DNA of 32,000 nt from Synechococcus sp. A15-28 (GTDB taxonomy: Bacteria > Cyanobacteriota > Cyanobacteriia > PCC-6307 > Cyanobiaceae). Of this stretch, positions 5,027-21,191 are shown piece by piece. The stretch lies in the NCBI RefSeq assembly GCF_014280175.1, contig NZ_CP047931.1, positions 570,001-602,000 of the forward strand, in the 5' to 3' direction. The position numbers and the translations under genes are program-made. Below the pieces are notes generated by a model. The model saw only the letters and a program-made list of their open reading frames with translations, had not been told where the DNA came from and did no database searches. How positions within the stretch are numbered: the stretch's first letter is position 1; every line of letters starts with the position of its first letter.

Positions 5027-5848
5027 ATGAGCAACACGCAGCCCGGGCTTGTGGGGAGGTTCCAGTCAACGATTGATCGTCTTTGGCTGCAAATCAGAAT
5101 TGTTCTGGCGCTTTCTGAAACTGAATTCGTTCTCAGGGCGGAAAAGGGATCCTTTGGAGTGTGGGGGGTCTTGTTTGAGCCCTTGGCGTTGATGATGACC
5201 CTGTTAGCGCTCAGGATTTTGATCCGTTTGAAGTCCACTGATCTGCTGAATCCTGTGGTCTGGCTTATTTGCGGGGTCGCGCTTCTTTATATGTTCAGAA
5301 AAATAGGAATCAAGGCCCTTACAGGGGTTTCAAAGCGCCAAAAATTCTTTTTTTATCGTCGCATCCGTCCCTTAGACACGTTGCTGGCTTCAGCCTTGAT
5401 TGAAGCAAGAATCCATGGTTCAGTTCTGGTACTTGTTTTCCTAAGTGTTTCATTCTGGAATTGGCAGATCAAGCTGGATAATCCTGCCCTTGTGCTTGTT
5501 GACTTCCTCTTGACAATTGCTCTCGGATTGGGAGTAGGGATCAGCGCTTTGGTGATCGGCCATCGCATACCAATCGTTAAAACCTTGACAAAATTTGGGA
5601 TTAACCGCCTCGTGCTCTGGACCTCTGGAATTTTCTATGCCACCTACACACTTCCAGGCCCAATTCGTCCTTTTGTGACGTGGAACCCCTTACTCCACTC
5701 CGTTGAATTGTTGCGACATGGAATTAATCTGGCCTATCCAATACCCGGTATCAGCTTGCAGTATCTGTTCGTGTGTAGTTCTCTGAGCTGCGGTTTTGGA
5801 CTACTGTTCTATTTCTTCAACGAGGCTCTCCTGCTCTCCGATGACTGA
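5027..5848 (+). CDS. kpsM: capsule/polysaccharide export ABC-2 permease, KpsM-like
   Basis: The protein is 273 aa and multi-TM. It aligns by eye along its length with E. coli KpsM (YRRIRPLDTLLASALIEARIH vs YRPVKPIDTIIARALLETLIY; TWNPLLHSVELLRH vs LWNPLVHVVELSRE). The start is ATG 5027. GC is lower than the flanks. Confidence 0.85.
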   Translation: MSNTQPGLVGRFQSTIDRLWLQIRIVLALSETEFVLRAEKGSFGVWGVLFEPLALMMTLLALRILIRLKSTDLLNPVVWLICGVALLYMFRKIGIKALTGVSKRQKFFFYRRIRPLDTLLASALIEARIHGSVLVLVFLSVSFWNWQIKLDNPALVLVDFLLTIALGLGVGISALVIGHRIPIVKTLTKFGINRLVLWTSGIFYATYTLPGPIRPFVTWNPLLHSVELLRHGINLAYPIPGISLQYLFVCSSLSCGFGLLFYFFNEALLLSDD

Positions 5849-7064
5849 ACAGCCTCGTGTCAGACAGACGACCGGACTGCTGCCGAAATTCGGAGAAGGT
5901 ACACGCTGGTTCGATAGCTTCGCTGGCGATGCTGCTTCTTCCGTCACGCCAAGGGTTCGTTCTGGGCTGAACGGGACATTCAGGGATCTGTTCAATTCGA
6001 GCACATTAGCTGCAGCATTCGTCGTCATTTCGGCGGTGTATTGCTTTGGGATCGGCCGTGATCGCTATCAAGCGACGTCGGAATTCGTGATCAAGCAGCC
6101 GCTACCCCCTGCGACTGCTTCCACCACAGTCCTCGGTTCGATGCAGAGCTCCAGCGTGCTCTCGTCTCTAGAGGATGGTCGCTATCTGCAGGTCTACCTG
6201 AAATCCAATGCTGTGAAGCAGGCGGTTTTCCCTGATCCCTCAGCTTTCAAGTCGATTTATGCCCCGCAGGCTCCAGATCAATGGAGTGGCTTGCCAGGTG
6301 ATGCCAATGAGCAGGAGCAGCTCTCGTTCTTCCGCCAGCAGCTCGATGTGATTCCCCAGGAGCTATCTGGGACCATCGTTCTATCCACGAGTGCTTTCAC
6401 GGCAGACGATGCCTATCGTTTGAACCGCGATCTCCTGAAACAGGCACAGCGCTTCGTCAATGAGGTCAATCAGTCGATCAGTGCCGATCAGCAGAGCTTT
6501 GCTGAGGAACAGGTTGCTTTCGCAAAGAACCGTTTGACCACGGCCACCAATGCGCTGGAAGCCTTTCAGGATCGTTATGGCCAATTGGATCCTCTGGGAG
6601 AACAGTCGGCCACCACAGGCTTCATCACTGGCTTGGAATCGCGGCTGGTTGATCTGAAGGTCGAGGAAGCCAGCCTTCGACGCCAGTTCCGTGATCCCAA
6701 TGCTCCAGAAGTTGCTTTTGTTGCCGACCAGGTGCGTGAGCTCGAGCGTCAGATTCAGGAGGAGCGCCAGAAGGCCGTTGGGGCCGGAGGACGTGATCTG
6801 AACAAACTTGCCACGCAAGCAAGTCGTCTCCAGGGAGATGTGAATTTCGCTAGGGAATCCTTGCGTTCAGCCATGCGCGCGGCTGACAACAGCCGTATGG
6901 AGAGCCAGCGTCAGTTGAAATTCATCGTGATGCTGAGCAAGCCGCAGATGCCCACAGGACCCGAAATCTCATGGCGTTGGAAGGCCTTCCTGTCGTGCCT
7001 TGGGGTTCTGATCGTGGTCTGGGGTGTTGGGGGTTTCATGCTGACAGCATTGAGGCGCGATTAA
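5841..7064 (+). CDS. kpsE: polysaccharide co-polymerase / capsule export inner-membrane protein, KpsE-like (PCP-3)
   Basis: ATG 5841 overlaps the kpsM stop by 8 nt (ATGACTGA); the ORF-track start at 5796 is TTG. An N-terminal TM (AAAFVVISAVYCFGI) is followed by RYQATSEFVIKQ and a long helical region, then a C-terminal TM (AFLSCLGVLIVVWGVGGFML). RFVNEVNQSISADQQSFAEEQVAFAKNRL...YGQLDP aligns with E. coli KpsE RFINEMSHRIARDQLAFAETEMEKARQRL...NNVLDP. Confidence 0.85.
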   Translation: MTEQPRVRQTTGLLPKFGEGTRWFDSFAGDAASSVTPRVRSGLNGTFRDLFNSSTLAAAFVVISAVYCFGIGRDRYQATSEFVIKQPLPPATASTTVLGSMQSSSVLSSLEDGRYLQVYLKSNAVKQAVFPDPSAFKSIYAPQAPDQWSGLPGDANEQEQLSFFRQQLDVIPQELSGTIVLSTSAFTADDAYRLNRDLLKQAQRFVNEVNQSISADQQSFAEEQVAFAKNRLTTATNALEAFQDRYGQLDPLGEQSATTGFITGLESRLVDLKVEEASLRRQFRDPNAPEVAFVADQVRELERQIQEERQKAVGAGGRDLNKLATQASRLQGDVNFARESLRSAMRAADNSRMESQRQLKFIVMLSKPQMPTGPEISWRWKAFLSCLGVLIVVWGVGGFMLTALRRD

Positions 7065-7231
7065 AATCAATTTTAGTTAATACTTTTATGCGGATTGATC
7101 TTTATTTTGATCATCGGGCCAGCGTATAAAGCGTTTTTAGGGATGAATGAAAAATATTAACTCCGAGTTTATTGATTATGTTTTCGTCGAGCATACTTTT
7201 TGTCTCTTCAGCTAAGTTGTATTTTTATTGT

Positions 7232-10171
7232 TCAATGATCTTCGCGCATTCGTTCTGTCTCCTCCAGATAATTTTCTATTTGTCCCGCCAACCGACGATT
7301 GCCGCGACGAATGGTTTCTTTCCAGTCTTTAATGTCTACACCATGAGGATTGTCTCGAAGCAAGCTAACCTTGATAAATGGGAAATCATGATTCTCAATG
7401 AGTGATTTCCATTCAGCATGTAGAATATTGCCGTTGGCATTTTTTGAGAAAAGGCTTTCAAGGGTCATCCCATTCTTCTTAAGGAGGATGGAGAGACCTA
7501 CCTCATAGTTTTTGACGATGTTGCGTTTTTCATCCCAGCACATTATTTGCTCCCAAAACTGCCAGAATGCTGGGCAAGCAATAGCACGACTTTTAAACAT
7601 TAGAAACGCAGATTGTAGATGCGGTTCATACATGAGGTTATCCGTTAAACCGATCACATCCGCTTGACTATTGGTAAGGCGATTCACAAGTCCAGTTAGG
7701 GGACGAATCGGACCCCAGAAACTGTCGTTGCTGAGCAATACAGATTGTCTTTGATTGATCAGATCGCGACAAAATCTTAGACCAGTCATCCAGCTCCCAA
7801 AGTCATACCCTTCATTACGTCGAATGATCAGACCATCACAAACATTCCTAAGAGCTGCTAAATCACGAGGGTGTTCCAACAATGATGGTGTCGCAGCAAC
7901 GACTTGAACATAAAAATGACGTCTATACGTTCTTAAGAGATCAAGAATGTCAGAGCGGATTGGTTTGTCGTCATTGGATCCATATTGTGCGAATATAAGC
8001 GGTATGCGTTTGTCATTCTTTCTTAACGGACGCCTCCAGGTCAACAGCACTTCTTCTCGTGCTGGCCTGAGAGGGGCCACTTGTTTCAGGATTGGTTCGT
8101 ATCTAGTCGAATGATGATGAAGGAGGGGGCTGGTTAATGGATCACCTTGTGCATAAATTGTTTTGTGCTTTAGGCGAAGTCGACCAGATTCTCGTTGATG
8201 TCTTGCCCAAGCAAATCCAACTTGATCTTTACCGCGACTAATTGACTCATAGTGAGTGATTGTTGCATGTGGCGTTACAACAATTCTCCCCCCTGCATCC
8301 CTGAGCCTGAGGCAAAGGTCGACATCATTGAAAACAACGGCGAGTTTTTCATCAAATCCACCCACAAAGTCAAACCACTCGGCTTTCACCATCAAGCAGG
8401 CTGCAGAGGCTGCGGAAAACTCCTCTTGTGTTCTGAGTGGCAAAAGGCTAGCAATCACCTCTTGCTCTTTAAGATGCTTACCAGGTTCGAGAACGCAACG
8501 ACGCTCTCCAGGAATAATGACAACTCCTTGATGTTGGATGCTTCCATCGGGATAATTAAGTCTCGAACCGACGGCTACAGTTTTGGGATGTGCAAAGGGA
8601 TCTAGAAGTACATCAAGAATACTTTCGGAGACGAACTCAATATCGTTGTTGAGAAAAAGTAGAAAATCTCCTTTGCACAACTGACGAGCTCTATTGTTTA
8701 GCCGCGAGTAATTGAATTCTTCATCGAGACGTGTGCATTGAATATTGTCTTCCTTGATAGCTTTTTTTATCCATTCTATTGTTGAATTGTCGGCACTCCC
8801 GTTGTCAATTAGAATGATCTCATAATTGCAGCTTTTCCCTGCATTTTGCTGAATTGATTTGACACATGTGCTTGTTAATTCCACTTGATCTCTAAATGGA
8901 ATCAATATGGAAACCAACGATGATTCATCTGTTGGGCGTGACAAGTCATGGCATCCTGCCTGCAAGGGGTTGGGCTTGAGTCCTCCCTCTATTCCAAAAT
9001 ATTGTTTGGCATGCTGACTCTTGATACGATCTATCTCATCTAATTGCTTATCACTAAATGGGCATCGTTCACGGGGCCAGCCTTGTTCAGGCATTGAAGG
9101 ATTCTTAGAACCTTGATGCTTTACAAGTGCCTGATGACAATGGGTAGTCTTGATCGGCTCGCGAGTGATCTGTAGCAGTACATCCAGACGCAATGCTTCA
9201 AGGCAGGTATAACTAGGAGCAAATGAACACTGCTTAAATAGAGAATAATCGAGCGTTAGAAGTCCTCCAATGCCTCCTCGAGTACACAGACGAATGGCTG
9301 ATACTGAGCTTCGGTATTGCCGATGTTCGTATCCAAGTCCATCATTCCAAAGTTGGCGAACAATAATGTCATCGCAGGTCATCACAGTGTTCGTTTTCGC
9401 TTGTTGGAGATGTCCCGCTAAGGCATGTAGGGCTCCATTGGCCAAGATATCGCTGGCATGACAAATGCTGATCCACTCTGCAGAGTAATCTCGTAGCAGA
9501 TTTGGCAAAGAATTCATATTTGCCAAAGAGCATGAAACCACATGCTCCCAACCACCTGTAACAGCTAAAGATTGTGCTCGATGTATTGTTCCATCAATCA
9601 CTAAAAGAAGATACTTTGATGTTAAAACGCCGGGATTTATTGTGGGTAGCTTTGTTGGATGATATCGATCAAGCCCTGTCGCAACAGACTCTTGCCGACG
9701 GAAATGGTCCCACCCCTCAGTTGCGAGATGTTCGAGTAAAGAGATTTTATTAGCGCGGCTAATTTGTCTCTGTGTCTTGTTCAGGCCTGAGTCATAAGCT
9801 CCAATGGGAATGGGCGGTAGATCTCCGTAAAGAGAAAGATGACCATTTAAAATTTGATTAAGTGTCCCACTCATCAGTAACTCATCAATTGATGAGAGGT
9901 GCCGATGTTGAAGAAGTAAGGGGAGTTTTTGAATTCCATCCTCTGAAGGGTTCCATGTTGCTGGCTCCAACAGTAGGGAAATAGGTAAATATCGCGGATT
10001 AAGAAGATGAAAGTCTAAGTAATCATGCAGTCTCGCAAGATCTGTTTTAATTAAATTAAGATCTATACCGATACGCTTGAAGTGTTTGAGCTGCTTTTGT
10101 AAAGAGCTAATAGAGGTTTTTCCATTTCTCCAATCCTGAAAGGATTTTGCCCACCTGTCGTTTGGATTCAT
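7232..10171 (-). CDS. 979-aa multi-domain glycosyltransferase: degenerate GT2-like domain + GT2 domain + RgpF (rhamnan synthesis protein F) domain
   Basis: The GT2 domain spans aa ~419-650 (nt ~8222-8917): VSILIPFRDQVELTSTCVKSI...YEIILIDNGS...FLLFLNNDIEF...AACLMVKAEWFDFVGGFDE. The RgpF-like domain spans aa ~722-945 (nt ~7337-8008): IPLIFAQY...LIIRRNEGYDFGSWMTGL...LLSNDSFWGP. The segment aa ~186-315 (nt ~9227-9616) parallels a GT2 fold but reads CHASD where the paralog has LDHDD. ATG 10171 overlaps the upstream stop (ATGA). The gene is AT-rich. Confidence 0.8.
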   Translation of the reverse strand: MNPNDRWAKSFQDWRNGKTSISSLQKQLKHFKRIGIDLNLIKTDLARLHDYLDFHLLNPRYLPISLLLEPATWNPSEDGIQKLPLLLQHRHLSSIDELLMSGTLNQILNGHLSLYGDLPPIPIGAYDSGLNKTQRQISRANKISLLEHLATEGWDHFRRQESVATGLDRYHPTKLPTINPGVLTSKYLLLVIDGTIHRAQSLAVTGGWEHVVSCSLANMNSLPNLLRDYSAEWISICHASDILANGALHALAGHLQQAKTNTVMTCDDIIVRQLWNDGLGYEHRQYRSSVSAIRLCTRGGIGGLLTLDYSLFKQCSFAPSYTCLEALRLDVLLQITREPIKTTHCHQALVKHQGSKNPSMPEQGWPRERCPFSDKQLDEIDRIKSQHAKQYFGIEGGLKPNPLQAGCHDLSRPTDESSLVSILIPFRDQVELTSTCVKSIQQNAGKSCNYEIILIDNGSADNSTIEWIKKAIKEDNIQCTRLDEEFNYSRLNNRARQLCKGDFLLFLNNDIEFVSESILDVLLDPFAHPKTVAVGSRLNYPDGSIQHQGVVIIPGERRCVLEPGKHLKEQEVIASLLPLRTQEEFSAASAACLMVKAEWFDFVGGFDEKLAVVFNDVDLCLRLRDAGGRIVVTPHATITHYESISRGKDQVGFAWARHQRESGRLRLKHKTIYAQGDPLTSPLLHHHSTRYEPILKQVAPLRPAREEVLLTWRRPLRKNDKRIPLIFAQYGSNDDKPIRSDILDLLRTYRRHFYVQVVAATPSLLEHPRDLAALRNVCDGLIIRRNEGYDFGSWMTGLRFCRDLINQRQSVLLSNDSFWGPIRPLTGLVNRLTNSQADVIGLTDNLMYEPHLQSAFLMFKSRAIACPAFWQFWEQIMCWDEKRNIVKNYEVGLSILLKKNGMTLESLFSKNANGNILHAEWKSLIENHDFPFIKVSLLRDNPHGVDIKDWKETIRRGNRRLAGQIENYLEETERMREDH

Positions 10172-11079
10172 TGGGCTTTCCTGCTGACTAGCCTCAGAAG
10201 TTTTTGCAGGACCATTATGTAAAATTGTCTTTTCTTATCAGAGTTTTTGGTCTCCAATTGTCTACTTGACTGGCGCACATCAATTCCTGATTCTTGACTA
10301 GTTCTTTCATCATTGGCCCATCCAAGATTGTGCTCTTCTATATCTAGCTTGTTAGATAGCGATTGATTCGTCGAGGACTTTCTTAGTTCTTTGATTTCAT
10401 CCAAAAGTAGTGCATTTTTAGTTTTTTGTTTCCTTAATAAATTTTTCAGCCGTTCATTATCCTTCATAAGGCTTTCATAGTCATTTTGGATCTGCGCTAA
10501 TTGATTTACACTATTTCTAACTTCTTCAAAACTTGCTTCTCGGTCAAGGTTGACCTCCCACCAGTCCATCAGCACGAGATCAGTCAATGAGCTTTGAATC
10601 AACCTTTGTATATAGTTGCTGTCTGCTTCCAGACCAAATAAACAGGATTTAAGTTCTAGATTGAGGTAAATATCAATAATTCTTGGTTCTTTTTTCGCAA
10701 TAGCTAGGGTTAGCAAGCTAGAAAGGGGCTTCAAGCTTGGGAAGTTATTACTTTTATCTAGCTGTGGATCCTCACCATTGCATAATCTTCTGATCGATGT
10801 AATGTCGAGCAGATCAAGACGCCAACTTGATGAAATATTTTTATATTTTAACGATAAAAGCGATAACTCTTCGTAATGCACGTGAATTTCATCGCATTTT
10901 GTTGCCGTACTTTCTTCCAGTCTTTTTTGTTCGAGCACTTGATTGGGTGCCGAATAAATTAATAATACATTTTGAGGTTCAATATCAGGATTGGCAGATG
11001 AAAGAGGTTTAAGTCCTGCTTTAGCTAGTTTGTCTTGTAGTGATGCACTAATATTTGATATCGAATACCAGTACTGCAT
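10168..11079 (-). CDS. hypothetical protein with coiled-coil segment (no family recognised)
   Basis: The ORF is open to TTG 11148. The first ATG is at 11079 (MQYWYSISN), giving 303 aa. A heptad-like stretch reads EEVRNSVNQLAQIQNDYESLMKDNERLKNLLRKQKTKNALLLDEIKELRK. Its stop overlaps the start of the 979-aa glycosyltransferase by 4 nt. A sampled line is about 32% GC. Confidence 0.55.
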   Translation of the reverse strand: MQYWYSISNISASLQDKLAKAGLKPLSSANPDIEPQNVLLIYSAPNQVLEQKRLEESTATKCDEIHVHYEELSLLSLKYKNISSSWRLDLLDITSIRRLCNGEDPQLDKSNNFPSLKPLSSLLTLAIAKKEPRIIDIYLNLELKSCLFGLEADSNYIQRLIQSSLTDLVLMDWWEVNLDREASFEEVRNSVNQLAQIQNDYESLMKDNERLKNLLRKQKTKNALLLDEIKELRKSSTNQSLSNKLDIEEHNLGWANDERTSQESGIDVRQSSRQLETKNSDKKRQFYIMVLQKLLRLVSRKAQ

Positions 11080-11105
11080 TTGATTCCTGATTCTTACGCG
11101 CAGTC

Positions 11106-11111
11106 TATAAT
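11106..11111 (+). promoter_or_regulatory. possible -10 element (TATAAT) in the divergent control region between 11079(-) and 11134(+)
   Basis: A perfect TATAAT lies at 11106-11111, 23 nt upstream of ATG 11134. There is no convincing -35: TTGATT at 11080-11085 is 20 nt away. In AT-rich DNA such hexamers arise by chance. Confidence 0.25.
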
Positions 11112-11133
11112 GCAGAACGCTCCTGAAGCTCAC

Positions 11134-12402
11134 ATGGCGTTCAGTCAATGCATGAGTGTATTAGTTGGCTGTCCCGCATCACCAACGCAGCTTCCTGATG
11201 GCCCTTGTTTGATTGTTGATGCTGAGTCAATTGATCAGAAAGATTTAATTGCTCAAAAGTTCTATTGTGCTCACTACCCCGAACCACCTGTCGACAATGT
11301 AGTACTGCTCAACCAGACAGTTATTTCAGAATTCGATCATCAGATTATTGATTGGAATATTTTCTCTGACAGTCGCTTCAATGGTCCTTCAACATTATCA
11401 GAGTTATCTGAACAATATCCAAACCTAAGATTAATTGAAAGCAGGAAGATTGAAGGTATCACCCTTTCTACTGTATTAACACATCAAAAAATTATTTCTG
11501 ATCCACTTTCAACTTTTGAGCTTATTTTGTATGAAGGTGATCCGTTAGTTGCTCTTCAAAGTTTGAAGGAGTGGTTGGCCCGTTGCACTCGTATTTCTTT
11601 GCGTGGTTTAGTCACTAGCTCTAAATCTCGTGAGGCCGCTGAAGCATTTTTGGGGGCATCTGGCTTTTGCAAATCGTCGGTTGATTCTTGTGTATGGACT
11701 CCTGAGCTTGAGATATCGTCACTTCATCTGTCCATAATTAGATGTGGTTTGTTGGCTTTATTTAATGCCGATATCTATCGAGAGCTATTTCCTCAGACGA
11801 AGGAAATGACAGATGTTGAACTGATTGACCACTGGTTATCACAGCCTAGTTTTAGAGAAATTGCCAAGGAGATGGAAAAGAGTATCCATAATCCATTAGA
11901 CAGAGATGGACTTTTGGCACTATTTAATGCCGATATCTATCGAGAGCTATTTCCTCAGACGAAGGAAATGACAGATGCAGAACTTATTGACCACTGGTTA
12001 TCACAGCCTAATTTTAGTGATGTATCTAAATTGATAAATGATGCTATTCAACGTAATCCAAATCAGCTCTCTGAATTGACAGACCAAGATCCCTCACTTC
12101 AGTTGTTGCAGCATATTTTCCCTTTTGAGTTATATCGATCTCAGAGGCCAGATCTCCTACAAATATCCAACAGAGAGTTGATCAATCACTATTGGCAAAA
12201 TGGGCAATATGAGGGGATTGATCTCTCAGAGTCAAATGTCAAAAATATTCTCGATAGAGATCAATCGTTGCAAGTCGACCGACTAACTTCTCGTGTTCAT
12301 GAACTAGAGCATCTTTTATCGTGCGCGAACGCACAGATTAGTGCTATGCAAAAGTTGATTATTGGTTCACGAGATTCTGGAGCCATCAATGAACAAGACT
12401 GA
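11134..12402 (+). CDS. hypothetical protein with internal 54-codon tandem duplication and C-terminal coiled-coil-like segment (no family recognised)
   Basis: The ORF is open from TTG 11080, with in-frame ATGs at 11110, 11134 and 11152. It contains LLALFNADIYRELFPQTKEMTD(V/A)ELIDHWLSQP twice plus a diverged third copy, FPFELYRSQRPDLLQISNRELINHYWQNGQYEG. The C-terminus reads LQVDRLTSRVHELEHLLSCANAQISAMQKLI. The exact start is uncertain. Confidence 0.55.
   Translation: MAFSQCMSVLVGCPASPTQLPDGPCLIVDAESIDQKDLIAQKFYCAHYPEPPVDNVVLLNQTVISEFDHQIIDWNIFSDSRFNGPSTLSELSEQYPNLRLIESRKIEGITLSTVLTHQKIISDPLSTFELILYEGDPLVALQSLKEWLARCTRISLRGLVTSSKSREAAEAFLGASGFCKSSVDSCVWTPELEISSLHLSIIRCGLLALFNADIYRELFPQTKEMTDVELIDHWLSQPSFREIAKEMEKSIHNPLDRDGLLALFNADIYRELFPQTKEMTDAELIDHWLSQPNFSDVSKLINDAIQRNPNQLSELTDQDPSLQLLQHIFPFELYRSQRPDLLQISNRELINHYWQNGQYEGIDLSESNVKNILDRDQSLQVDRLTSRVHELEHLLSCANAQISAMQKLIIGSRDSGAINEQD
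11752..12017 (+). repeat. in-frame direct tandem duplication, two 104-bp copies with 162-bp period
   Basis: Copy 1 is 11752-11855 and copy 2 is 11914-12017. My manual alignment finds 6 mismatches and a 57-bp perfect run (11759-11815 = 11921-11977). The 162-nt period equals 54 codons. Confidence 0.9.
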
Positions 12403-13690
12403 TCAGATACTTGCCTGTCGCGTCTTGGCGGATGATTATTTGTCCGGAAGATGGCAGAAAATTATCAAGCCAGTCTGTTCTTTGAACGATACAGCAACAT
12501 GTGATAATTCTTCCACGCTTAGTGACTTCGTGCGACTTCTTGCCAGTCTAGTTCCTGCAGAAATCCTGAAGGAGGATTGGAAGCCTGCTTTATTGTCACA
12601 TCGCACCTCTTTTACTGAGGCACGTCTTCGCTACTGCGCAACTCATTTACTTTGTGCTTGTAATAATCTTGCGTGCAGAAACGATCAACAATATCGCTAT
12701 AAACTTCACCTCTTTTGCATTAGCTTGGGTAAATTACTAAAATCTGATGATGATTTTATACTCATTGCTGATGTGTTTTCATTCCCCGACTCTCTCGTAT
12801 CACTGAGTCAAAGTATTCGTATATTTTATTCGGCTTACAGTCGTCGTTTGCGTGAGTCATTCCCTCAACAGATGACGGTTGTTTTAGGGATGCATCGTAG
12901 TGGAACCTCTGCTTTAACTGGATTACTTGGTAACTTAGGCATTGCAGGACCTACGGATGCATTAGGTGCCACGGAAAATAATCTGTTGGGCTATTGGGAA
13001 TCTACTTCTTTAGTCACTTCTTCTGATCGTTTTTTGGCTTCTCAAAATAGCCATTGGTCTACTCTTTATCGTTGGTCTCTTGGGTGGTGGAAATCAGCGG
13101 CAGCTCTAGACTGGATCGATTCTTATTGGCATGATTTGCAAAATGCCTATAATACGAAGGAACACTTCGTCTTGAAAGATCCACGCCTTTGTATTTTGAT
13201 CGAGGGTATGACCCCATGCTTAGTTGATTCTCTACTGCAGTTGGATTTTTTGTTGATATTACGCTCTCCTGTTGAGGTTGTTATTTCTTTGTGTAAGGCG
13301 GAAGAAATTTCTCCATACGACGCTCTTAACTTGTGGATCGGATCAGTCTTACGCGCTGAATGTACCTCACGTCCTTATTCACGCAATATTCTCACGTACT
13401 ACCAACTGATGAATAGGCCTCAATCTATTTTGGATTCTTTTGGACTGAACTGGAATCAAAGCTTTATGGAATCGACGCTTGATCAGGCAAAATCCTTTTT
13501 AAGGCCATCATTGTATCGAACCAAGATTGATAACGTAAGGGAACCATTTGTGGCAACAAATCCTGAGTTGACTAGTCTTTTGGAGCTGGCTGAAGAGATC
13601 TTTGATTGTTTTCAACATGCTACCCCAGACATTGCTAGTATCTCAGAGAGATTAAATTATCAGTGGGTTGAAATCTTGGCAGGTCGTTAG
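12389..13690 (+). CDS. sulfotransferase-family protein with ~165-aa N-terminal extension of unknown function
   Basis: A PAPS 5'-phosphosulfate-binding-type loop, VVLGMHRSGTSALTGLL, is encoded from 12887 (GMHRSGTS). Downstream, FVLKDPRLCILIEG...LLILRSPVEVVISL resembles the second PAPS-binding region of bacterial sulfotransferases. ATG 12389 overlaps the upstream stop by 14 nt; the ORF-track start at 12362 is TTG. Confidence 0.65.
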   Translation: MNKTDQILACRVLADDYLSGRWQKIIKPVCSLNDTATCDNSSTLSDFVRLLASLVPAEILKEDWKPALLSHRTSFTEARLRYCATHLLCACNNLACRNDQQYRYKLHLFCISLGKLLKSDDDFILIADVFSFPDSLVSLSQSIRIFYSAYSRRLRESFPQQMTVVLGMHRSGTSALTGLLGNLGIAGPTDALGATENNLLGYWESTSLVTSSDRFLASQNSHWSTLYRWSLGWWKSAAALDWIDSYWHDLQNAYNTKEHFVLKDPRLCILIEGMTPCLVDSLLQLDFLLILRSPVEVVISLCKAEEISPYDALNLWIGSVLRAECTSRPYSRNILTYYQLMNRPQSILDSFGLNWNQSFMESTLDQAKSFLRPSLYRTKIDNVREPFVATNPELTSLLELAEEIFDCFQHATPDIASISERLNYQWVEILAGR

Positions 13691-13717
13691 CAAATGTTTC
13701 CGTAAATGATTTTTAGC

Positions 13718-16132
13718 TTAATATCGCTGATAGTAATCTTTCATCTTCCTGAAACTGGATCTAATTTCAATTCCTTTCTTGATGCTTTCTGGGGAAGTGC
13801 TGACGCTAAAATTTTCACGGATCTTTGTTAGGTTTGGATTGTAAAACAAATCACTTGGTAGTTCTTTGATGTTTTGAATGTCGTATTGATTCAGCATGAA
13901 GTTTATTTCTTTCCTGAACCTTTCTTGCTTTTCGGGAGAGTCCTCGGCTCCTCGCGATATTGATTCGTGGTGAAACAGCTCAGCGTATGGCGTGAAAATA
14001 TTCCGATATCCTCTTGCGTGAACTCTCATGCAGAAGTCGACATCATTAAATGCGATTGTGAGGTCTTGTTCATTTAGTCCGCCGACGTTATTGAAAATTT
14101 CTCTGCGAATTGCGAGGCATGCTGCAGTTACTGCTGTCATCTGTTGTACATATTGAAGTCTGTCGACATAACCAGGACTATCTTCCGGAAAGTATTTATG
14201 GGCATGACCGGCGACTTGGCCAATTCCAATAATTACACCTCCATGCTGAATAGTCCCATTCGAATAGTATAACTTTGCGCCGACACAACCAACGTCTGGC
14301 CTTGAAGTGTGGGAAACAAGTTCTTGGAGCCATTCGCCAGTGATAACCTCAACATCGTTATTGACCAAAGCAATGATATCTGCCCTTGATTTGCTGACGG
14401 CATAGTTGTTGATGGCTGAAAAGTTGAATTTTTTGTTATACTTGATTATATTTATTTTTTCACCATGTTTTCTTTTCAGTTTTTTGAATAGATTCTTTGT
14501 CTCGACCTCTGCGCTCTGGTTGTCTACAATTGTGATTGTATAGTTCGTATATGTCGTCTTGGTGATGATTGAATCAACTGCCAGATTTAATACCTCTGCT
14601 TGATCTCGAGTGGGGATGATGAGTTCCACAGATGGTGGCTTTTCTGGTATGTGCCACTCGCAGGTGAATCGGTTCCTTGCCTTGATGCGGGCTGTTGCCT
14701 TAATGCCGCCACGTCGATGCTGCTCGTCCAGGTAGTGCTGAACTGCTCTGTGTCCGCTTTCAGTTGTGTAATCCTTGCTGTTTGGGTTGCTGGCGGTTGA
14801 TCCAGAATGTGCTCGCCAGTGGTACAAGACTCTGGGGATGTGAATAATTTGGTCCGGGGAAGATTCCAGGACAGTCCTGAGCGCAAGATCGTGATCTTGG
14901 CTTCCCTCGAAGCCAACCCGGAAGCCACCAATTTGTTTGAGGATCTCTCTTCTGTAAACACCCAAGTGTGAAATAAAGTTATAAGACAAGAGTAGATCTA
15001 TGTTGAAGGCTGGCTTGAAGTGTGGGCATGAACGTATTCCATCATCGTTGACTTTGTCTTCATCGCTATAGATTAAATTTGCTTGCGGCTTTTTTTGCAA
15101 CTCACGTGCCACCCAGTAAAGAGCATTGTCTGCAAGGATATCGTCGTGATCGAGTAATGCTACGTATTCTCCTGTCGCCAGACTAAGTGCGTCATTGCTG
15201 GCTTCACATATGTGGCCATTCTTTTCGCGAAAGATAAGTTTAATTCTAGGGTCTATCGCTTGATAGCTCTTGAGGGTTGTCTTGACGCTCACTGTGCTGG
15301 AGCAGTCATCGCAGATGCAGAGTTCCCAGTTGGGATAGCTTTGACGGCATACGCTTTCGATGCATTTGCGAAGGTGGTTGCTGTTGGTGTTGTAGGTAGG
15401 AATAATAATGCTGATAAGTGGGGCGTCTTTATTTAGGTCAAGCCATTCCCTAATTTGCTCTTCCGTGTGGTCGAGCTCTGGTTCGATTTCTTTTAAGTAG
15501 CGATTGTATTGGTCATCTGCTCCTTGCTGGGTTTGATTGTTGATAGGTTTTTTGGGCCAAGACTGATGCCTGATCTGGGATGATCGATAGATCTGTTCTG
15601 TTCGCCATGCAATTTCTTTTTTTGTCGAGTAGGCCTCCCCCTCGATGACATTGTCGTTTGCCTTGGGCTTCCTTGATGTCCATTGTCTTAAAATATCTAC
15701 AAACGTATCTTCGGTTGTAGGCAATAGTGAAATAGTCGCATTGATTGCTCCGGGAGTATTGACTGGTTTGATCTTGACTCTGCTCCTTTGCAGGACGACG
15801 ATTGGAAGTACAAGGCACGGTTCTGATCTTGTGCCTTGGATCGGCACTGTGAATGTTCTTGCCAGCAATTTGTTGGGACCAACCGGCTCTATGGAAACGG
15901 AGCAAAGTGTTGGCTGCTCTTCGGAATTAATTGATAGTCGAAGTAAGTAGTACCCTTTCGCGATGCCTTTGCGTGTTTCGAAGTAACAATTTGCATGTTC
16001 GGCGTAGTATTTCCCGTCGCCAAGTAGTCGTATGTTGTTTCTAACCCAATCCTGCCGATGGCATCTGTCTTTTCTGGTTTCTTGTGTTTGTTCCACTACG
16101 TTTTCTTTTCGGCATAGTGTGTGATGTACCAC
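13718..16132 (-). CDS. 804-aa glycosyltransferase with two GT2 domains and an unassigned ~235-aa N-terminal domain
   Basis: GT2-A spans aa ~238-445 (nt ~14798-15421): LISIIIPTYNTNSNHLRKCIESVCRQSYPNWELCICDDCS...YVALLDHDDILA...LIYSDEDK. GT2-B spans aa ~501-730 (nt ~13943-14632): VELIIPTRDQAEVL...ITIVDNQS...IIALVNNDVEV...AACLAIRREIFNNVGGLNE. The start is ambiguous: GTG 16132 gives a 37-nt overlap with rfbB, and GTG 16096 gives a TAGTG 1-nt overlap. Confidence 0.8.
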   Translation of the reverse strand: MVHHTLCRKENVVEQTQETRKDRCHRQDWVRNNIRLLGDGKYYAEHANCYFETRKGIAKGYYLLRLSINSEEQPTLCSVSIEPVGPNKLLARTFTVPIQGTRSEPCLVLPIVVLQRSRVKIKPVNTPGAINATISLLPTTEDTFVDILRQWTSRKPKANDNVIEGEAYSTKKEIAWRTEQIYRSSQIRHQSWPKKPINNQTQQGADDQYNRYLKEIEPELDHTEEQIREWLDLNKDAPLISIIIPTYNTNSNHLRKCIESVCRQSYPNWELCICDDCSSTVSVKTTLKSYQAIDPRIKLIFREKNGHICEASNDALSLATGEYVALLDHDDILADNALYWVARELQKKPQANLIYSDEDKVNDDGIRSCPHFKPAFNIDLLLSYNFISHLGVYRREILKQIGGFRVGFEGSQDHDLALRTVLESSPDQIIHIPRVLYHWRAHSGSTASNPNSKDYTTESGHRAVQHYLDEQHRRGGIKATARIKARNRFTCEWHIPEKPPSVELIIPTRDQAEVLNLAVDSIITKTTYTNYTITIVDNQSAEVETKNLFKKLKRKHGEKINIIKYNKKFNFSAINNYAVSKSRADIIALVNNDVEVITGEWLQELVSHTSRPDVGCVGAKLYYSNGTIQHGGVIIGIGQVAGHAHKYFPEDSPGYVDRLQYVQQMTAVTAACLAIRREIFNNVGGLNEQDLTIAFNDVDFCMRVHARGYRNIFTPYAELFHHESISRGAEDSPEKQERFRKEINFMLNQYDIQNIKELPSDLFYNPNLTKIRENFSVSTSPESIKKGIEIRSSFRKMKDYYQRY

Positions 16133-17172
16133 TGCACTGTTTTCGCGATGGCTTCATTGAAATCATGCCGTGGTTTCCACCCCAGCTCGGTTTCAATTCT
16201 TGCTGGATCAATGGCGTATCGCCTGTCATGTCCAGGCCGATCAGTCACCAGTTGAATTAATTGCTTATGCGGATTGCGCGTCGGAAGTAGCTGATCCAAC
16301 TGGCTACAGATGCATTCCACGACCTCGCGATTGGTTCGTTCTCCATAGCCGCCGACGCAGTAACTGCGGCCTGATGCTCCCTTGCAAGCGGCCAGGAGCA
16401 GGGCATCGACGTGGTCTTCCACGTACAACCAGTCTCTGACGTTCAATCCATCGCCATACAAGGGGATTGGCTCTCCTGCAGCAGCCTTCAACGTCACGAC
16501 GGGAATCAACTTTTCGGGGAATTGCCAAGGTCCGTAGTTGTTGGAGCAATTCGTCAGCACCACTGGCAATCCGTACGTGTGGTGCCAGGCGCTCACCAGA
16601 TGGTCACTGGCCGCCTTGCTGCTCGAATATGGACTTCGCGGGTCGTAGGGGGTGGTTTCGCAGAAACGACCTTCCTCGCCCAGGGAGCCAAAGACTTCAT
16701 CGGTGCTGATGTGATGCAGTCGGAAGTTCTCTTGGCGCTCTCCGCTCAAGCCCTCGACATGCTCCCGTACCGCTTGCAGCAGGTTGTACGTCCCCGTCAC
16801 GTTGCTCTCGATGAACACACCAGGGCCCGCAATCGAGCGGTCCACATGACTTTCCGCCGCAAGGTGCATCACCAGATCGGGATCCGCTGCCTGCACCGCG
16901 TCTCGGACCGCCTTGGCGTCAGCAAGGTCCACCTGTTGCAGCACATGTCGTTGGGCAGCTCCATCACCAAGCTCAGTCAGCACCTCCTCGATCGAGGTGA
17001 GATCGCTGGCGTAGCCCATCTTGTCGAGATTGAACACCATGGCGTCGCTCTCGCGCAGCAGGCGCCGCACCACGGCTCCGCCAATAAATCCAGCCCCTCC
17101 TGTCACGAGCACCCGCCGGCGGGATCCCAGCAGCTCAGCAGCCGTCGGCATGGTGTTGGTCATCGCAATCAC
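16096..17172 (-). CDS. rfbB: dTDP-glucose 4,6-dehydratase
   Basis: Motifs VLVTGGAGFIGG, HISTDEVFGS and YSSSKAASDHLV are typical of RmlB. GTG 17172 overlaps the rfbD stop (GTGA). Alternative ATG starts lie at 17163 and 17151. Confidence 0.92.
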   Translation of the reverse strand: MIAMTNTMPTAAELLGSRRRVLVTGGAGFIGGAVVRRLLRESDAMVFNLDKMGYASDLTSIEEVLTELGDGAAQRHVLQQVDLADAKAVRDAVQAADPDLVMHLAAESHVDRSIAGPGVFIESNVTGTYNLLQAVREHVEGLSGERQENFRLHHISTDEVFGSLGEEGRFCETTPYDPRSPYSSSKAASDHLVSAWHHTYGLPVVLTNCSNNYGPWQFPEKLIPVVTLKAAAGEPIPLYGDGLNVRDWLYVEDHVDALLLAACKGASGRSYCVGGYGERTNREVVECICSQLDQLLPTRNPHKQLIQLVTDRPGHDRRYAIDPARIETELGWKPRHDFNEAIAKTVQWYITHYAEKKT

Positions 17173-18077
17173 GAGCTGGTGGGGATGGCCCGCAGCACAT
17201 CTCTGAGAGCTGCCCGCCAGGACTGCGCCTCAAGATTCAGCGCCGCGCGGCTTCCCTGGCAATCCAGCAGGGAATAAGCGGGACGGGTGGCTGGGGTTGG
17301 GTAGTCGGCGGTGCTGATCGGATTCACCGTGGCGGCTTTCTCCAGCAGACCAAGGTCCATTGCCAACTCACCCACTGCTACGGAGACGTCATACCAGCTG
17401 GCGGCGCCGCCATCACACCAATGCATGACAGGGGGGAGTACTACTTCTTTACAGCTGGTGGTGATCACCGTCCAGCAAGCCGTCGCCAGGTTCAACGTGC
17501 TGCTCGGGCAGCCCACCTGATCGGCCACCACCCCTAACTGCTCTCTCTCCCGATGCAGCCGCAACATGGTGAGGGCAAAGTTTTTGCCCACTGGACCCAT
17601 CACCCAGCTGGTGCGCAGCACCACACCTTGGTCACTTGCCCCAAGCAGCTCTTCCACCGCCTCCTCTCCGCTGGCCTTGCTGGCGCCATAGACCCCTAGA
17701 GGATCGCGCTTCTGATCGACCCGATAAGGGGACCCCTGCTGACCGTTGAAGACAAAGTCGGTGCTCAGCTGCAGCATCCGGCCGCCGTACTCCTCGATGG
17801 CGTCTGCAAAGGCGCGGGGTGCGGCTCCATTCACGGCATGGGCCAGCTCTGGCTCCGCTTCCGCTTTGTCCACCGCGGTGTACGCACCGGCATTCAGAAC
17901 CCAGTCGGGGCGGTGCTCCTCCACCGCCTTGCTGCAGGCCATGGCATCGGCCAGATCGAGGGCCAACAATCCATCCCCTCCACTGCGGCTGCTGGGCAGC
18001 AGCTCAATCCCATCCGGGGTCGCTTCGATCAACGCCTGGCCCAGCTGGCCGGCAGCACCGGTGAGCAACACCTTCAT
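17169..18077 (-). CDS. rfbD: dTDP-4-dehydrorhamnose reductase
   Basis: [16 protein letters not shown] and YGASKASGEEAV match RmlD, and the length is typical. ATG 18077 shares 1 nt with the rfbC stop (TGATG). Confidence 0.9.
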   Translation of the reverse strand: MKVLLTGAAGQLGQALIEATPDGIELLPSSRSGGDGLLALDLADAMACSKAVEEHRPDWVLNAGAYTAVDKAEAEPELAHAVNGAAPRAFADAIEEYGGRMLQLSTDFVFNGQQGSPYRVDQKRDPLGVYGASKASGEEAVEELLGASDQGVVLRTSWVMGPVGKNFALTMLRLHREREQLGVVADQVGCPSSTLNLATACWTVITTSCKEVVLPPVMHWCDGGAASWYDVSVAVGELAMDLGLLEKAATVNPISTADYPTPATRPAYSLLDCQGSRAALNLEAQSWRAALRDVLRAIPTSS

Positions 18078-18664
18078 CAGAATATATCTCCAGTTGCCGT
18101 GGCTTGATCCAGGCTGGCGGCGTCTCCATCCTTGCCCGACAGGTTCACCTCAGTTCCTGCCAGCTGATCCAAGGGCCAGGCGATGCCGATGGTGGCGTCG
18201 TTCCAGCGGATGGCCCGCTCGCAATCCTTGTTCCAGAAGCCGCGCGCCTTGTACTGCACTTCAGCCACAGCGCTGAGGGTCAGAAAGCCGTGGGCAAAGC
18301 CCTCCGGCACCCAGAGCTGCTGCTTGTTCTCTGCACTCAAATGGGCACCCACCCACTGCCCGAATGTGGTGGAACCCCGGCGGATGTCCACCGCCACATC
18401 AAAGATCTCTCCGATGCTGGCCCGCACCAACTTGGCCTGCGGTTCCGGCGAGAGTTGGTAATGCAGACCGCGCAGCACCCCTTGTGCGGAGCGGGAGTGG
18501 TTGTCCTGGGAGAACACCACCGCTTCATCCACGGCCTCATCAAATTTGCGTTGGTTCCAGCTTTCAAAAAACCAGCCCCGCTCATCGCCAAAGGCCTTGG
18601 GGCTGATCAGCAGGGGGCCTTCAATGGTGGCCCCTTGAGGGCTCTGCAGTTGCTCAACCTGCAT
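18077..18664 (-). CDS. rfbC: dTDP-4-dehydrorhamnose 3,5-epimerase
   Basis: From ATG 18664 the protein reads [37 protein letters not shown]...LRGLHYQ, the canonical RmlC pattern. The upstream part of the ORF (to 18793) overlaps rfbA and looks non-coding. Confidence 0.9.
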
Positions 18665-19595
18665 GGGTCGGCACCTCCAGACTGCTCTGCAACGCGGCGT
18701 GATCGCTGATGCTTTCCTCCAGCAGCTGCAGCAAATAGGTGCCGTAGCCGCTCTTCTTGAGGGGCTGTGCCAGTCGTTCCAATTGCGAAGCATTGATCCA
18801 ACCCTGGCGCCAGGCCACCTCCTCCGGGCAACCCACCTTCAGGCCCTGACGGTGTTCCAGCGTGCGGATATAGCCACCGGCATCGTTAAGGGAGTCGCAG
18901 GTGCCGGTGTCCAGCCAGGCCATCCCTCGACCCATCAATTCCACCCTGAGCAGGCCGTCATCCAGGTACATCTGGTTGAGATCGGTGATCTCCAGCTCCC
19001 CACGGGCTGAGGGTTTTACCTGGCGGGCCCGTTCCACGACGGAAGAGTCATAGAAGTAGAGGCCGGTCACGGCGTAGCGACTCTTGGGCTGCTGGGGCTT
19101 CTCCTCAATGCTCAGCACTCTCCCCTCCGCATCGAATTCAGCCACGCCATAGCGCTCCGGATCGCTGACGGGATAGGCAAACACCGTTGCGCCTTCCTCC
19201 CGGCCATCGCTGCTCACCAGCTGTGGCACCAGATCGTGACCGTGGAACAGGTTGTCCCCCAACACCAGGGCAGCCGATGCCCCATCCAGGAATTCAGCGC
19301 CGATCAGGAAGGCCTGCGCCAACCCATCCGGGCTGGGCTGAATGGCGTATTCGATCGTCATTCCCCAGCGGCTGCCGTCGCCCAGCAGGCGCTGGAAGGC
19401 CTCCTGATCGTGGGGGGTGGTGATGATCAACACCTCACGGATTCCCGCCAGCATCAACGTGCTCAGCGGGTAGTAGATCATCGGCTTGTCGTACACCGGC
19501 AGCAGCTGTTTGCTCACCGCCTGGGTGATCGGATGCAGCCGCGTGCCACTGCCTCCGGCCAGGATGATTCCCTTACGGCGCGAAGGATGAGGCAC
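18654..19595 (-). CDS. rfbA: glucose-1-phosphate thymidylyltransferase
   Basis: [54 protein letters not shown] is the canonical RmlA N-terminus. The start is GTG at 19595. Confidence 0.93.
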
Positions 19596-19644: not shown

Positions 19645-20166
19645 TCAATCACGCCAGTCGAGCCAGGGGAGCCCAGGGGCAATGGCCGGGGTTGTGGAGC
19701 GGTACGTCGCGTAGTCCGGATGGAGCTGGAGCAAGGACCGTTCCTCCCGGCGGGCTTTCCCCCCCAGCACGACCACCAGCCCCAGCAGCAGCAGTAGATG
19801 CAGCAGGCTGCCGAAGGCCAGCACCACCCCGAGGGAACACAGCAGCACGGCCTGGTACATCGGGTGCCGGCAGCGTTGATAAGGCCCCTGGCAGATCAGG
19901 CGGTTTCCCTGCTTGGCCGCCGGCAACGGAGACAGGCTGCTGCCGAGGGCGGCAAAGGCTTGGGCTGCTACGACCAAGCCGCTCAACAGCAGCAGCACGC
20001 CGACGATGAAAAGGGGACGGGGCCAGATCTCCAACCCCCAGGCGGCAGCTGTTGGCCAGGGCGGCAGCAGGTGTGCCGTGATCATCACCAGCTGGGCCAG
20101 CAGCCACCATTCGCCGCGGCGGTTATCGAGCCAGCCCCCCCAGCTCAGTCCCCAACCTGAAAACAT
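19645..20166 (-). CDS. isoprenylcysteine carboxyl methyltransferase (ICMT)/phospholipid methyltransferase-family membrane protein
   Basis: It is a multi-TM protein with the C-terminal pattern GPYQRCRHPMYQAVLLCSLG...ARREERSLLQLHPDYATY typical of the ICMT/PEMT family. The start is ATG 20166, with GTG at 20169. Confidence 0.7.
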   Translation of the reverse strand: MFSGWGLSWGGWLDNRRGEWWLLAQLVMITAHLLPPWPTAAAWGLEIWPRPLFIVGVLLLLSGLVVAAQAFAALGSSLSPLPAAKQGNRLICQGPYQRCRHPMYQAVLLCSLGVVLAFGSLLHLLLLLGLVVVLGGKARREERSLLQLHPDYATYRSTTPAIAPGLPWLDWRD

Positions 20167-20184
20167 CACCTGACTACTCCTTCC

Positions 20185-20559: not shown

Positions 20560-20562
20560 GGT

Positions 20563-21123: not shown

Positions 21124-21191
21124 CGCCGGGCTCCCGGAGGACCGTTCCGCTGTCCATCATCAACCCGTCCGTTGCCGCTGGCCTCACGCTG

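Follow-up and report, generated by a model that had tools for sequence, protein, structure and literature searches.

A probable surface-glycan locus with a putative sulfotransferase module in the marine cyanobacterium Synechococcus sp. A15-28

Which cell-surface product is made by a cyanobacterial gene block that places a capsule-type export pair beside dTDP-L-rhamnose genes, two large glycosyltransferases and a protein with a sulfotransferase-like motif, and what would the sulfotransferase do in it? We addressed this question for positions 5027-19595 of a 32-kb stretch of the Synechococcus sp. A15-28 genome (contig NZ_CP047931.1), the whole of which we refer to as the window. A sequence-only reading of this stretch had proposed that multi-domain glycosyltransferases assemble a rhamnose-containing, probably sulfated glycan in the cytoplasm and that an ATP-binding cassette (ABC) transporter exports it. 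Our analysis assigns a probability of roughly 0.6 to a related reading, in which a cell-surface glycan locus, resident and highly polymorphic, combines cytoplasmic assembly, a sulfation module and Kps-type export. This is not a new kind of system; what stands out is a three-gene module whose sulfotransferase is overlooked by standard annotation, variation in the number of a 54-residue unit in one of its proteins (ORF440) and the idea of a sulfate cap.

Sugar supply, chain synthesis and the export pair

The block encodes a complete dTDP-L-rhamnose pathway. All four enzymes exceeded the cut-offs of their NCBIfam models, with 498.7 bits against 360.65 for RmlA (TIGR01207), 422 against 365 for RmlB (TIGR01181), 226 against 156 for RmlC (TIGR01221; called at 195 amino acids (aa) in the related locus L012) and 264.7 against 224 for RmlD (TIGR01214). 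At the other end of the block, two proteins match the solved KpsMT-KpsE complex. KpsM, with about six predicted transmembrane (TM) segments, had as its sole match in the PDB the KpsM chain of that complex (8tsh_C, E 5.9e-19); it reached E 1.6e-28 against the NCBIfam KpsM model, under the equivalog cut-off, and 24.9 bits against Pfam ABC2_membrane, slightly short of the gathering score. KpsE matched TIGR01010 (BexC/CtrB/KpsE; E 4.8e-51) and PDB 8tsh_E (E 1.1e-37 across residues 76-420), and has TM segments at both ends (residues 65-83 and 398-416). A start at M16 agrees with its orthologues, called at 407 aa, and the gene overlaps the end of kpsM. Between the export pair and the rhamnose genes lie the genes for the two glycosyltransferases, for the putative 3'-phosphoadenosine-5'-phosphosulfate (PAPS)-dependent sulfotransferase and for two proteins from open reading frames (ORFs) that we call ORF326 and ORF440. 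The block reads as follows, with coordinates given in the window and GT2 denoting glycosyltransferase family 2.

5027-5848, plus strand: kpsM-like ABC-2 permease, 273 aa (NCBIfam, PDB, about six TM segments)
5841-7064 (ORF from 5796), plus strand: kpsE-like PCP-3 co-polymerase (TIGR01010, PDB 8tsh_E)
7232-10171, minus strand: multi-domain glycosyltransferase, 979 aa, soluble (Pfam GT2 and RgpF)
10168-11079, minus strand: ORF326, 303 aa from M24 (no family; conserved in syntenic loci)
11134-12402, plus strand: ORF440, 422 aa (no family; 54-aa units; WH8102 orthologue SYNW0643)
12389-13690, plus strand: putative PAPS-dependent sulfotransferase, 433 aa (motifs, relatives, predicted fold)
13718-16096 (ORF to 16132, 804 aa), minus strand: dual-GT2 glycosyltransferase, 792 aa (two PF00535 domains)
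16096-17163, minus strand: rfbB/rmlB, dTDP-glucose 4,6-dehydratase (TIGR01181)
17169-18077, minus strand: rfbD/rmlD, dTDP-4-dehydrorhamnose reductase (TIGR01214)
18077-18664 (ORF to 18793), minus strand: rfbC/rmlC, dTDP-4-dehydrorhamnose 3,5-epimerase (TIGR01221)
18654-19595, minus strand: rfbA/rmlA, glucose-1-phosphate thymidylyltransferase (TIGR01207)

Both glycosyltransferases are composed of several domains. The dual-GT2 protein carries two GT2 domains (PF00535, E 8.5e-44), the second of which falls into the rhamnosyltransferase subfamily TIGR01556 (E 2.7e-11), and it matches the chondroitin synthase 2z86 in the PDB (E 4.7e-26). The start of its gene overlaps the rfbB stop, and the rfb genes, which have a host-like GC content, are translationally coupled to it. 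Homologues with 42-67% identity adjoin relatives of the sulfotransferase in metagenome loci, and we regard the dual-GT2 protein as a candidate polymerase. The 979-aa glycosyltransferase has a GT2 domain at residues 420-660 (nt 8192-8914; Pfam E 1.1e-13) and an RgpF match (PF05045) at residues 772-939 (nt 7355-7858; E 3.6e-21, 75.8 bits against a gathering score of 25). Its residues 1-400 gave no family match, and an exact-sequence look-up of the protein returned no record.

TM prediction identified KpsM and KpsE as the sole membrane proteins of the block and KpsM as the only polytopic one, while the glycosyltransferase, sulfotransferase, ORF326 and ORF440 proteins have no predicted TM segments. 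Wzx and Wzy, proteins of 10-12 TM segments, were not found within the locus; intergenic gaps do not exceed 168 bp and therefore leave no room for either. On gene content, the sequence-only reading was thus borne out: every gene that it listed for positions 5027-19595 lies where it was placed, and the KpsM/KpsE export pair, the full dTDP-L-rhamnose operon, the second enzyme with two GT2 domains and the absence of Wzx and Wzy all held.

A putative sulfotransferase and its two companion proteins

Three lines of evidence, from relatives, motifs and predicted fold, support the 433-aa protein as a putative PAPS-dependent sulfotransferase. Among 35 aligned relatives (23-92% identical), 28 match Sulfotransfer_3 (PF13469), with a best E of 1.9e-8. 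The motif GMHRSGTS at nt 12887-12910, corresponding to the 5'-phosphosulfate-binding (5'-PSB) loop, is invariant in the alignment of these relatives, as are E204, KDPR and R292/P294/E296/S300. R292 and S300 form a pair resembling the 3'-phosphate-binding (3'-PB) motif, with the Arg-x7-Ser spacing of the 3'-phosphate site. We take the invariant residues to be PAPS contacts from knowledge of the family rather than from a docked model. The AlphaFold model of the protein has a mean predicted local distance difference test (pLDDT) score of 90.6, and its top 43 PDB matches in Foldseek are all sulfotransferases or close fold relatives (4gox, 3ap3, 2z6v and 4gbm among them), including the OLS and CurM sulfotransferase domains, TPST2 and Stf9. 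A helical N-terminal domain (residues 1-155) precedes the catalytic domain, which begins at about residue 160; this N-domain is absent from the catalytic-domain relatives.

The two neighbouring proteins, ORF326 and ORF440, gave no family match in Pfam or NCBIfam. Their genes are divergently transcribed, and the ORF440 stop overlaps the sulfotransferase start. ORF326 consists of an N-domain of about 180 aa and a coiled-coil-like C-terminus and is called at 303 aa in L012; the syntenic gene product is 69% identical in strain WH 8103 and 39-40% identical in locus L007. Its N-domain recurs, in the same relative position, in an 801-aa protein of locus L008. ORF440, which shares 31-32% identity with its syntenic counterpart in L007, combines an N-domain of about 185 aa with two 54-aa units, a third, degenerate one and a long predicted helix at the C-terminus. 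At the DNA level the units form a direct repeat (11740-11858 and 11902-12020, spaced 162 nt) that Tandem Repeats Finder passed over, with fewer than two copies, and that a separate repeat search detected.

The number of units varies among ORF440 homologues. An exhaustive representative search returned 118 clusters, and an alignment-based second homology search recovered the same close relatives again. The 54-residue unit (LFNADxYR...) occurs in one, two, three or four copies in 79, 39, 4 and 1 protein clusters, respectively, and alleles with one to four units correspond to proteins of 376, 430, 484 and 530 aa. For the ORF440 of the window there is an allele that matches it at 99% identity in the aligned columns yet is one unit shorter, a sign that the units have recently expanded or contracted. 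Elsewhere, the ORF440 N-domain is fused to GT2 and GT4 domains, to Methyltransf_24/rhamnosyl O-methyltransferase, to an FkbM methyltransferase and to WbsX and RgpF, and both methyltransferase fusions show weak coiled-coil-type matches between their domains. We also considered the N-domain itself as a degenerate FkbM methyltransferase and dropped this candidate, as hhalign against two FkbM domains gave a probability below 1% and a PDB profile search was unsupportive.

At other genomic sites (L008 and L015), genes for an ORF326-like protein, an ORF440-like protein and a sulfotransferase again stand together and are again divergently arranged. In L008, a 585-kb JGI contig, the module adjoins rfbACDB and two RgpF proteins and lies beside gltB rather than fumC; the pair of ORF440-like and sulfotransferase genes is tandemly duplicated there (9066-13464). 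The two 439-aa sulfotransferases of L008 gave identical BLAST results, and an rve_3 transposase fragment is found close by. In L015 (305-19101), the module lies within a glycosyltransferase-rich locus on a 67%-GC contig, together with GT61- and GT47/exostosin-like glycosyltransferases, whose families are found mostly in eukaryotes. L015 also encodes an ABC exporter of 979 aa that has a cNMP-binding domain.

The surroundings of more distant relatives point to a possible role of the enzyme. A metagenome scan yielded at least 539 relatives of the catalytic domain, and we analysed the 33 loci of at least 8 kb. A dual-GT2 homologue is present in 15 of these 33, a Wzt/KpsT-type ATPase (GRNGxGKS...YS[SA]GM) in eight, and rfbA with rfbB within 10 kb in six, most of which also have rfbC and rfbD. 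Several loci show the order wzm, wzt, sulfotransferase, large glycosyltransferase. All four Wzt proteins tested from loci with sulfotransferase relatives contain Wzt_C, and in L048 and L055 the ATPase gene lies directly upstream of the relative. In L048, L055, L071, L052 and L065, relatives stand beside or are fused to a polymerase and lie next to wzt, and in L047 and L057 several kilobases separate the two; in the window, the sulfotransferase gene sits between two polymerase genes, with no wzt. Giant proteins of 1224-1664 aa encoded in L055 (5566-9993), L052 (9902-13576) and L065 (8397-13391) have an N-terminal sulfotransferase motif followed by GT2 and GT4 modules, and PF13469 matches those of L055 and L052 as well as a fusion in L048. 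The L055 fusion further contains a methyltransferase domain and a weak coiled-coil-type match between domains, and its gene directly follows a wzt with Wzt_C. These three contigs are non-cyanobacterial metagenome sequences, and relatives that follow wzt genes with Wzt_C come from sediment and other environmental metagenomes. Since relatives occupy the position of a chain terminator, the sulfate may cap the chain end instead of decorating the polymer in bulk. The wzt/Wzt_C neighbours in metagenomes suggest that sulfate-capped glycans may occur well beyond cyanobacteria.

Conservation and divergence of the locus and its surroundings

Comparison of the fumC-to-rfb interval, which the sequence-only reading had put forward as a check, revealed the same order in WH 8103, L006, L007, L012 and L013: fumC, DUF1997, kpsM, kpsE, giant glycosyltransferase, ORF326, ORF440, sulfotransferase, dual GT2, rfbBDCA and a PEMT gene. 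The site is fixed, with fumC/DUF1997 on one side and the PEMT-like and ARD genes on the other. Across the block, the marine metagenome contig L012 is 98-100% identical to the window. WH8102 has an orthologue of ORF440 (SYNW0643) and, judging by locus tags, appears to carry the same locus. At the same site, L005 holds a simpler cassette that lacks a sulfotransferase and encodes a single protein of 1173 aa in which RgpF, WsaF_C and GT2 domains are combined.

Divergence is graded along the locus. Between the window and L007 or L013, the flanking, Kps and rfb proteins share 56-92% identity, the pair of glycosyltransferases 28-59%, and ORF326, ORF440 and the sulfotransferase 27-39%; these last three form the most divergent part of the locus, with 27-40% identity between lineages. 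O-antigen and capsule loci that experience diversifying selection typically show such a pattern, and pressure to diversify, exerted by phages and grazers, would fit how strongly the central genes diverge. Composition shifts as well: a trough of 37-49% GC extends from about 5.0 to 16.1 kb in a window of about 64% GC overall, and GC at third codon positions (GC3) is 0.34-0.47 in the five central genes compared with 0.66-0.81 in the flanking genes. Low GC is also found in the divergent L013 allele. Scans of the 32-kb window for tRNAs, Rfam elements, integrases and transposases gave no match, and a scan for promoters and terminators performed no better than on shuffled sequence.

The right-hand flank (19645-21902) is conserved in WH 8103, L012 and L013. 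It begins directly past rfbA with a PEMT/ICMT-like membrane methyltransferase (19645-20169) and also contains a 124-aa ORF with a hydrophobic N-terminus, the ARD dioxygenase of methionine salvage (20563-21123) and a TP_methylase (21192-21902, plus strand). Next to it, 2.3 kb from the rfb genes, a 697-aa BcsA-like processive GT2 synthase with several TM segments (21905-23998, minus strand) matches the cellulose synthase model TIGR03030 (E 8.5e-114, below the cut-off) and is found at the same place in WH 8103 and L012; it would be a second, synthase-type polysaccharide route. Further along, a Dus dihydrouridine synthase gene (23884-24897, minus strand) overlaps a 464-aa plus-strand ORF (region 23884-25350) that matches DUF1823 only in its last 110 residues, and the real plus-strand gene is probably much shorter than this ORF. 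A GT4 glycosyltransferase (30094-31263, minus strand) beside a fragment of a major facilitator superfamily (MFS) transporter (31296-31940) is an envelope-sugar gene unrelated to the block.

Proposed mechanism, known relatives and rival explanations

On the basis of these observations, we propose the following route. RmlA, RmlB, RmlC and RmlD supply dTDP-L-rhamnose, and a lipid carrier would be primed by an unlinked enzyme. The dual-GT2 and GT2/RgpF-N proteins, which are soluble by prediction and carry recognizable glycosyltransferase domains, would build the chain on the cytoplasmic face from presumed substrates. ORF326, ORF440 and the sulfotransferase would add sulfate from PAPS, as the fold and motifs of the latter suggest, and would most likely do so as a scaffolded complex, resembling the terminator and ruler machinery of ABC-transporter-dependent O-antigens. 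Sulfate would cap or mark the non-reducing end, with the coiled-coil proteins setting the geometry. KpsM, together with an ATPase encoded elsewhere, would then export the chain, and KpsE and an unlinked outer-membrane channel would carry it across the envelope. We favour an end cap or end mark as the role of the sulfate, arguing from gene context in other organisms. A further step, that sulfation is a chain-terminating signal on the ORF326/ORF440 scaffold and that the number of 54-residue units (1-4) is a ruler for glycan length, is doubtful, and the ruler function of the units is a conjecture.

Several known systems share features with this route. The export pair resembles KpsMT-KpsE(-KpsD) of Escherichia coli K1/K5 (PDB 8TSH) in having adjacent, overlapping KpsM and KpsE genes and full-length matches, and in group 2 capsule systems, too, the chain is assembled in the cytoplasm before export. 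It differs in that KpsT, KpsD, KpsS/KpsC and KpsF/KpsU are not in the window and that the NCBIfam scores lie under the equivalog cut-offs. [quoted passage not shown]

The streptococcal and lactococcal Rgp pathway (RmlABCD, RgpA/B/F, RgpC/D and an RgpE cap) shares with the block dTDP-L-rhamnose, an RgpF-family domain, a cytoplasmic chain and ABC export, and termination by a cap has been proposed for this rhamnan (PMC9574508). In the window, by contrast, only the N-terminal third of the RgpF model is present, fused to GT2, orthologues of RgpA and RgpB are absent, KpsE occurs in a Gram-negative host, and a sulfotransferase takes the place of the capping glycosyltransferase.

Closest to the proposed module are O-antigen systems in which a terminator works on a coiled-coil ruler (E. 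coli O9a WbdD/WbdA; Klebsiella pneumoniae O12 WbbB, O4 and O7). These have multi-module polymerases and a modifying enzyme associated with coiled-coil or coiled-coil-like proteins, and relatives of the sulfotransferase occupy the WbdD position after wzt/Wzt_C or the N-terminus of a WbbB-like polymerase. In the characterized cases, a coiled-coil protein bears the terminator, and the carbohydrate-binding module (CBM) of Wzt recognizes the added cap (PMC11231755). The window differs in having a sulfotransferase, with the module split over three proteins, and a Kps-type transporter with no visible CBM. A search of the literature found no description of a sulfate cap. In Aeromonas salmonicida, a gene for a 216-aa protein with a sulfotransferase domain lies between those for a 438-aa Wzt and the multi-domain polymerase WbbB, and the repeat-unit structure of the O-antigen contains no sulfate (PMC4483657), as expected from a sub-stoichiometric cap. 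That organism is a gammaproteobacterium with a Wzm/Wzt system, and the likeness to the sulfotransferase of the window is one of gene position.

Several points weigh against the proposed reading. An ABC ATPase (Walker A plus ABC signature) was found in no ORF in any frame of the 32-kb window, and likewise not in the related loci L001-L012. Among the scanned window ORFs, no OPX/KpsD, KpsS/KpsC or priming transferase family was present, nor did the window contain an ATPase with the cap-binding Wzt_C domain. The ATPase, the outer-membrane polysaccharide export (OPX) protein, KpsS/KpsC and the priming transferase would all lie outside the 32 kb, so that export rests on unseen partners. We know of no terminal-cap requirement in Kps-type transporters, and the combination of such a transporter with the absence of an ATPase from the window weakens the end-cap part of the proposal. 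RgpF is matched only in part, as no more than positions 15-198 of the 503 in the model align, with the C-terminal portion of a GT2 fusion; the other part of the model (233-503) is matched by proteins of L005 and L008. Pfam, even at E 10, and NCBIfam gave no match to the 433-aa protein, and neither did PDB sequence searches with a single sequence (phmmer) or a profile. ORF440 was modelled by AlphaFold from an 18-sequence alignment at a pLDDT of 43, with a helix at residues 360-408 of this low-confidence model, and the coiled coils of ORF326 and ORF440 are deduced from that weak ORF440 model and faint Pfam matches. Purified LPS of WH8102 is described as a simple chain of glucose that bears a single rhamnose and lacks Kdo (PMC4515613); what the locus makes is thus probably something other than this purified LPS, or is made conditionally.

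As a separate observation, two lineage-specific ORFs lie beside kpsM/kpsE in related loci, one of 261 aa in L005 (8169-8954) and one of 263 aa in L007 (4258-5049). Neither is an ATPase, neither falls into a family, and the two are dissimilar to each other.

Measured against these points, the functional claims of the sequence-only reading fared unevenly. Its RgpF domain is real, well above the gathering score, and the partial match makes the epithet 'rhamnan-polymerising' an inference. For the sulfotransferase with GMHRSGTS, the direct hidden Markov model (HMM) match that had been set beforehand as a test fails; the call stands because relatives, motifs and predicted fold agree. Cytoplasmic assembly followed by ABC export is upheld by pathway logic, soluble glycosyltransferases and the Kps pair, with a transporter that is incomplete in the window. 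A sulfated glycan may mean one that carries a single terminal cap and not a sulfated polymer, given relatives in chain-terminator position. The suggestion that a sulfated Kps/ABC-type rhamnan route is new in marine picocyanobacteria was too strong: Maeda et al. 2021 reported sulfotransferase genes in cyanobacterial ABC-type clusters and, by Pfam, 12 sulfotransferases in WH8102 (PMC8205485). The absent ATPase, OPX protein and priming enzyme, the ORF326 and ORF440 pair, the unit variation and the WH 8103/WH8102 locus had been missed.

The place of the sulfate is the first issue on which other explanations compete. It is possible, at a tentative level, that sulfate is distributed along the polymer, making the product a bulk sulfated rhamnose-containing capsule or exopolysaccharide of the ABC route with ORF326 and ORF440 as accessory or scaffold proteins. 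The cyanobacterial precedent is synechan (xss) of Synechocystis PCC 6803, a product that contains rhamnose and comes from a locus with dedicated sulfotransferases (PMC8205485), of which XssA and XssE sulfate the repeat unit. Synechan differs from the block in being Wzx/Wzy-dependent and plasmid-borne, with an eight-sugar repeat carrying two sulfates, and its sulfotransferases are Pfam-detectable whereas that of the window is not matched directly. Bulk sulfation would also fit the sulfotransferase genes in other cyanobacterial ABC-type clusters (PMC8205485), the capsule-type KpsM/KpsE pair, which belongs to systems without a known cap requirement, and the relatives that lie at a distance from wzt (L047 and L057). 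It accounts less well for relatives found repeatedly directly after wzt with Wzt_C or fused to the polymerase N-terminus, for the coupling of the sulfotransferase to coiled-coil or coiled-coil-like proteins and for the joining of the ORF440 N-domain elsewhere to end-modifying methyltransferases. Sulfation of side chains is compatible with all three of these points and is a serious rival to the end cap.

A second alternative concerns the product. We consider it unlikely that this is an LPS O-antigen, a rhamnan built on undecaprenyl-PP and ligated to lipid A-core with the KpsM-like protein acting as Wzm. Rhamnose does occur in marine Synechococcus LPS (PMC4453008), and the same source cites phage-resistance mutations of WH7803 that fall in dTDP-rhamnose synthesis and transport genes (Marston 2012, cited in PMC4453008); relatives of the glycosyltransferases and sulfotransferase are found elsewhere in wzm/wzt loci. 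The permease, however, matches KpsM and not Wzm as its only PDB relative, its PCP-3 partner of the KpsE family is lacking in O-antigen ABC systems, the window encodes no WaaL ligase, and WH8102 LPS is described with a single rhamnose and no long O-chain (PMC4515613).

The 1173-aa protein of the L005 allele, with its RgpF, WsaF_C and GT2 domains, brings to mind a glycan for protein glycosylation, destined for an S-layer protein or one involved in motility (SwmA of clade III strains, for example) and modelled on the methyl-capped, ABC-transporter-dependent S-layer rhamnan of Geobacillus. WsaF is an S-layer glycan rhamnosyltransferase, and SwmA is glycosylated. We nevertheless regard this as highly improbable, as the window contains no oligosaccharyltransferase, KpsE implies transport across the whole envelope, and the same site is used in lineages far more divergent than WH 8103 (L007, L013 and L005, with flanking proteins 58-92% identical). 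Least credible of all, and rejected here, is the notion that the low-GC block is a recent foreign mobile island whose genes form no integrated host pathway: despite its 37-45% GC against 62-67% in the flanks and its shifted GC3, the window has no mobility genes, tRNA or Rfam element, the same genes, order and site are common to lineages whose flanking proteins differ by 8-42%, which argues against recent mobile insertion, the divergent L013 allele has the same low GC, and the rfb genes are coupled to the dual-GT2 gene.

We return to a resident surface-glycan locus with a sulfation module and Kps-type export. Glycosyltransferase-rich islands have long been known in marine Synechococcus (PMC2441476), and a phylum-wide survey found marine picocyanobacteria to be without most exopolysaccharide (EPS) genes (PMC4594306). 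In the literature searched, there was no characterization of this particular locus, and SYNW0641 and SYNW0645 of WH8102 are mentioned solely in a network prediction, under the label 'possible glycosyltransferase'. Transposon mutagenesis has reportedly been achieved in WH8102. With the locus apparently present in that strain, its product and its role towards phages and grazers may be directly testable.

Marine Synechococcus are among the most abundant phototrophs, and their surface glycans decide infection and grazing; the locus described here is a fixed-site, serotype-like polymorphic cluster. Its putative sulfotransferase belongs to a large family missed by standard HMM annotation in this organism, and the occurrence of that family at the terminator position in many bacteria offers a hypothesis for unexplained O-antigen sulfotransferase genes such as that of A. 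salmonicida. If the cap and ruler proposals are true, natural changes in unit number would tune surface-glycan length in marine Synechococcus, and the sulfate cap would be an as yet undescribed cap chemistry. Even modest sulfation, or a sulfate cap, on a picocyanobacterial glycan would matter for marine dissolved organic sulfur and particle chemistry.

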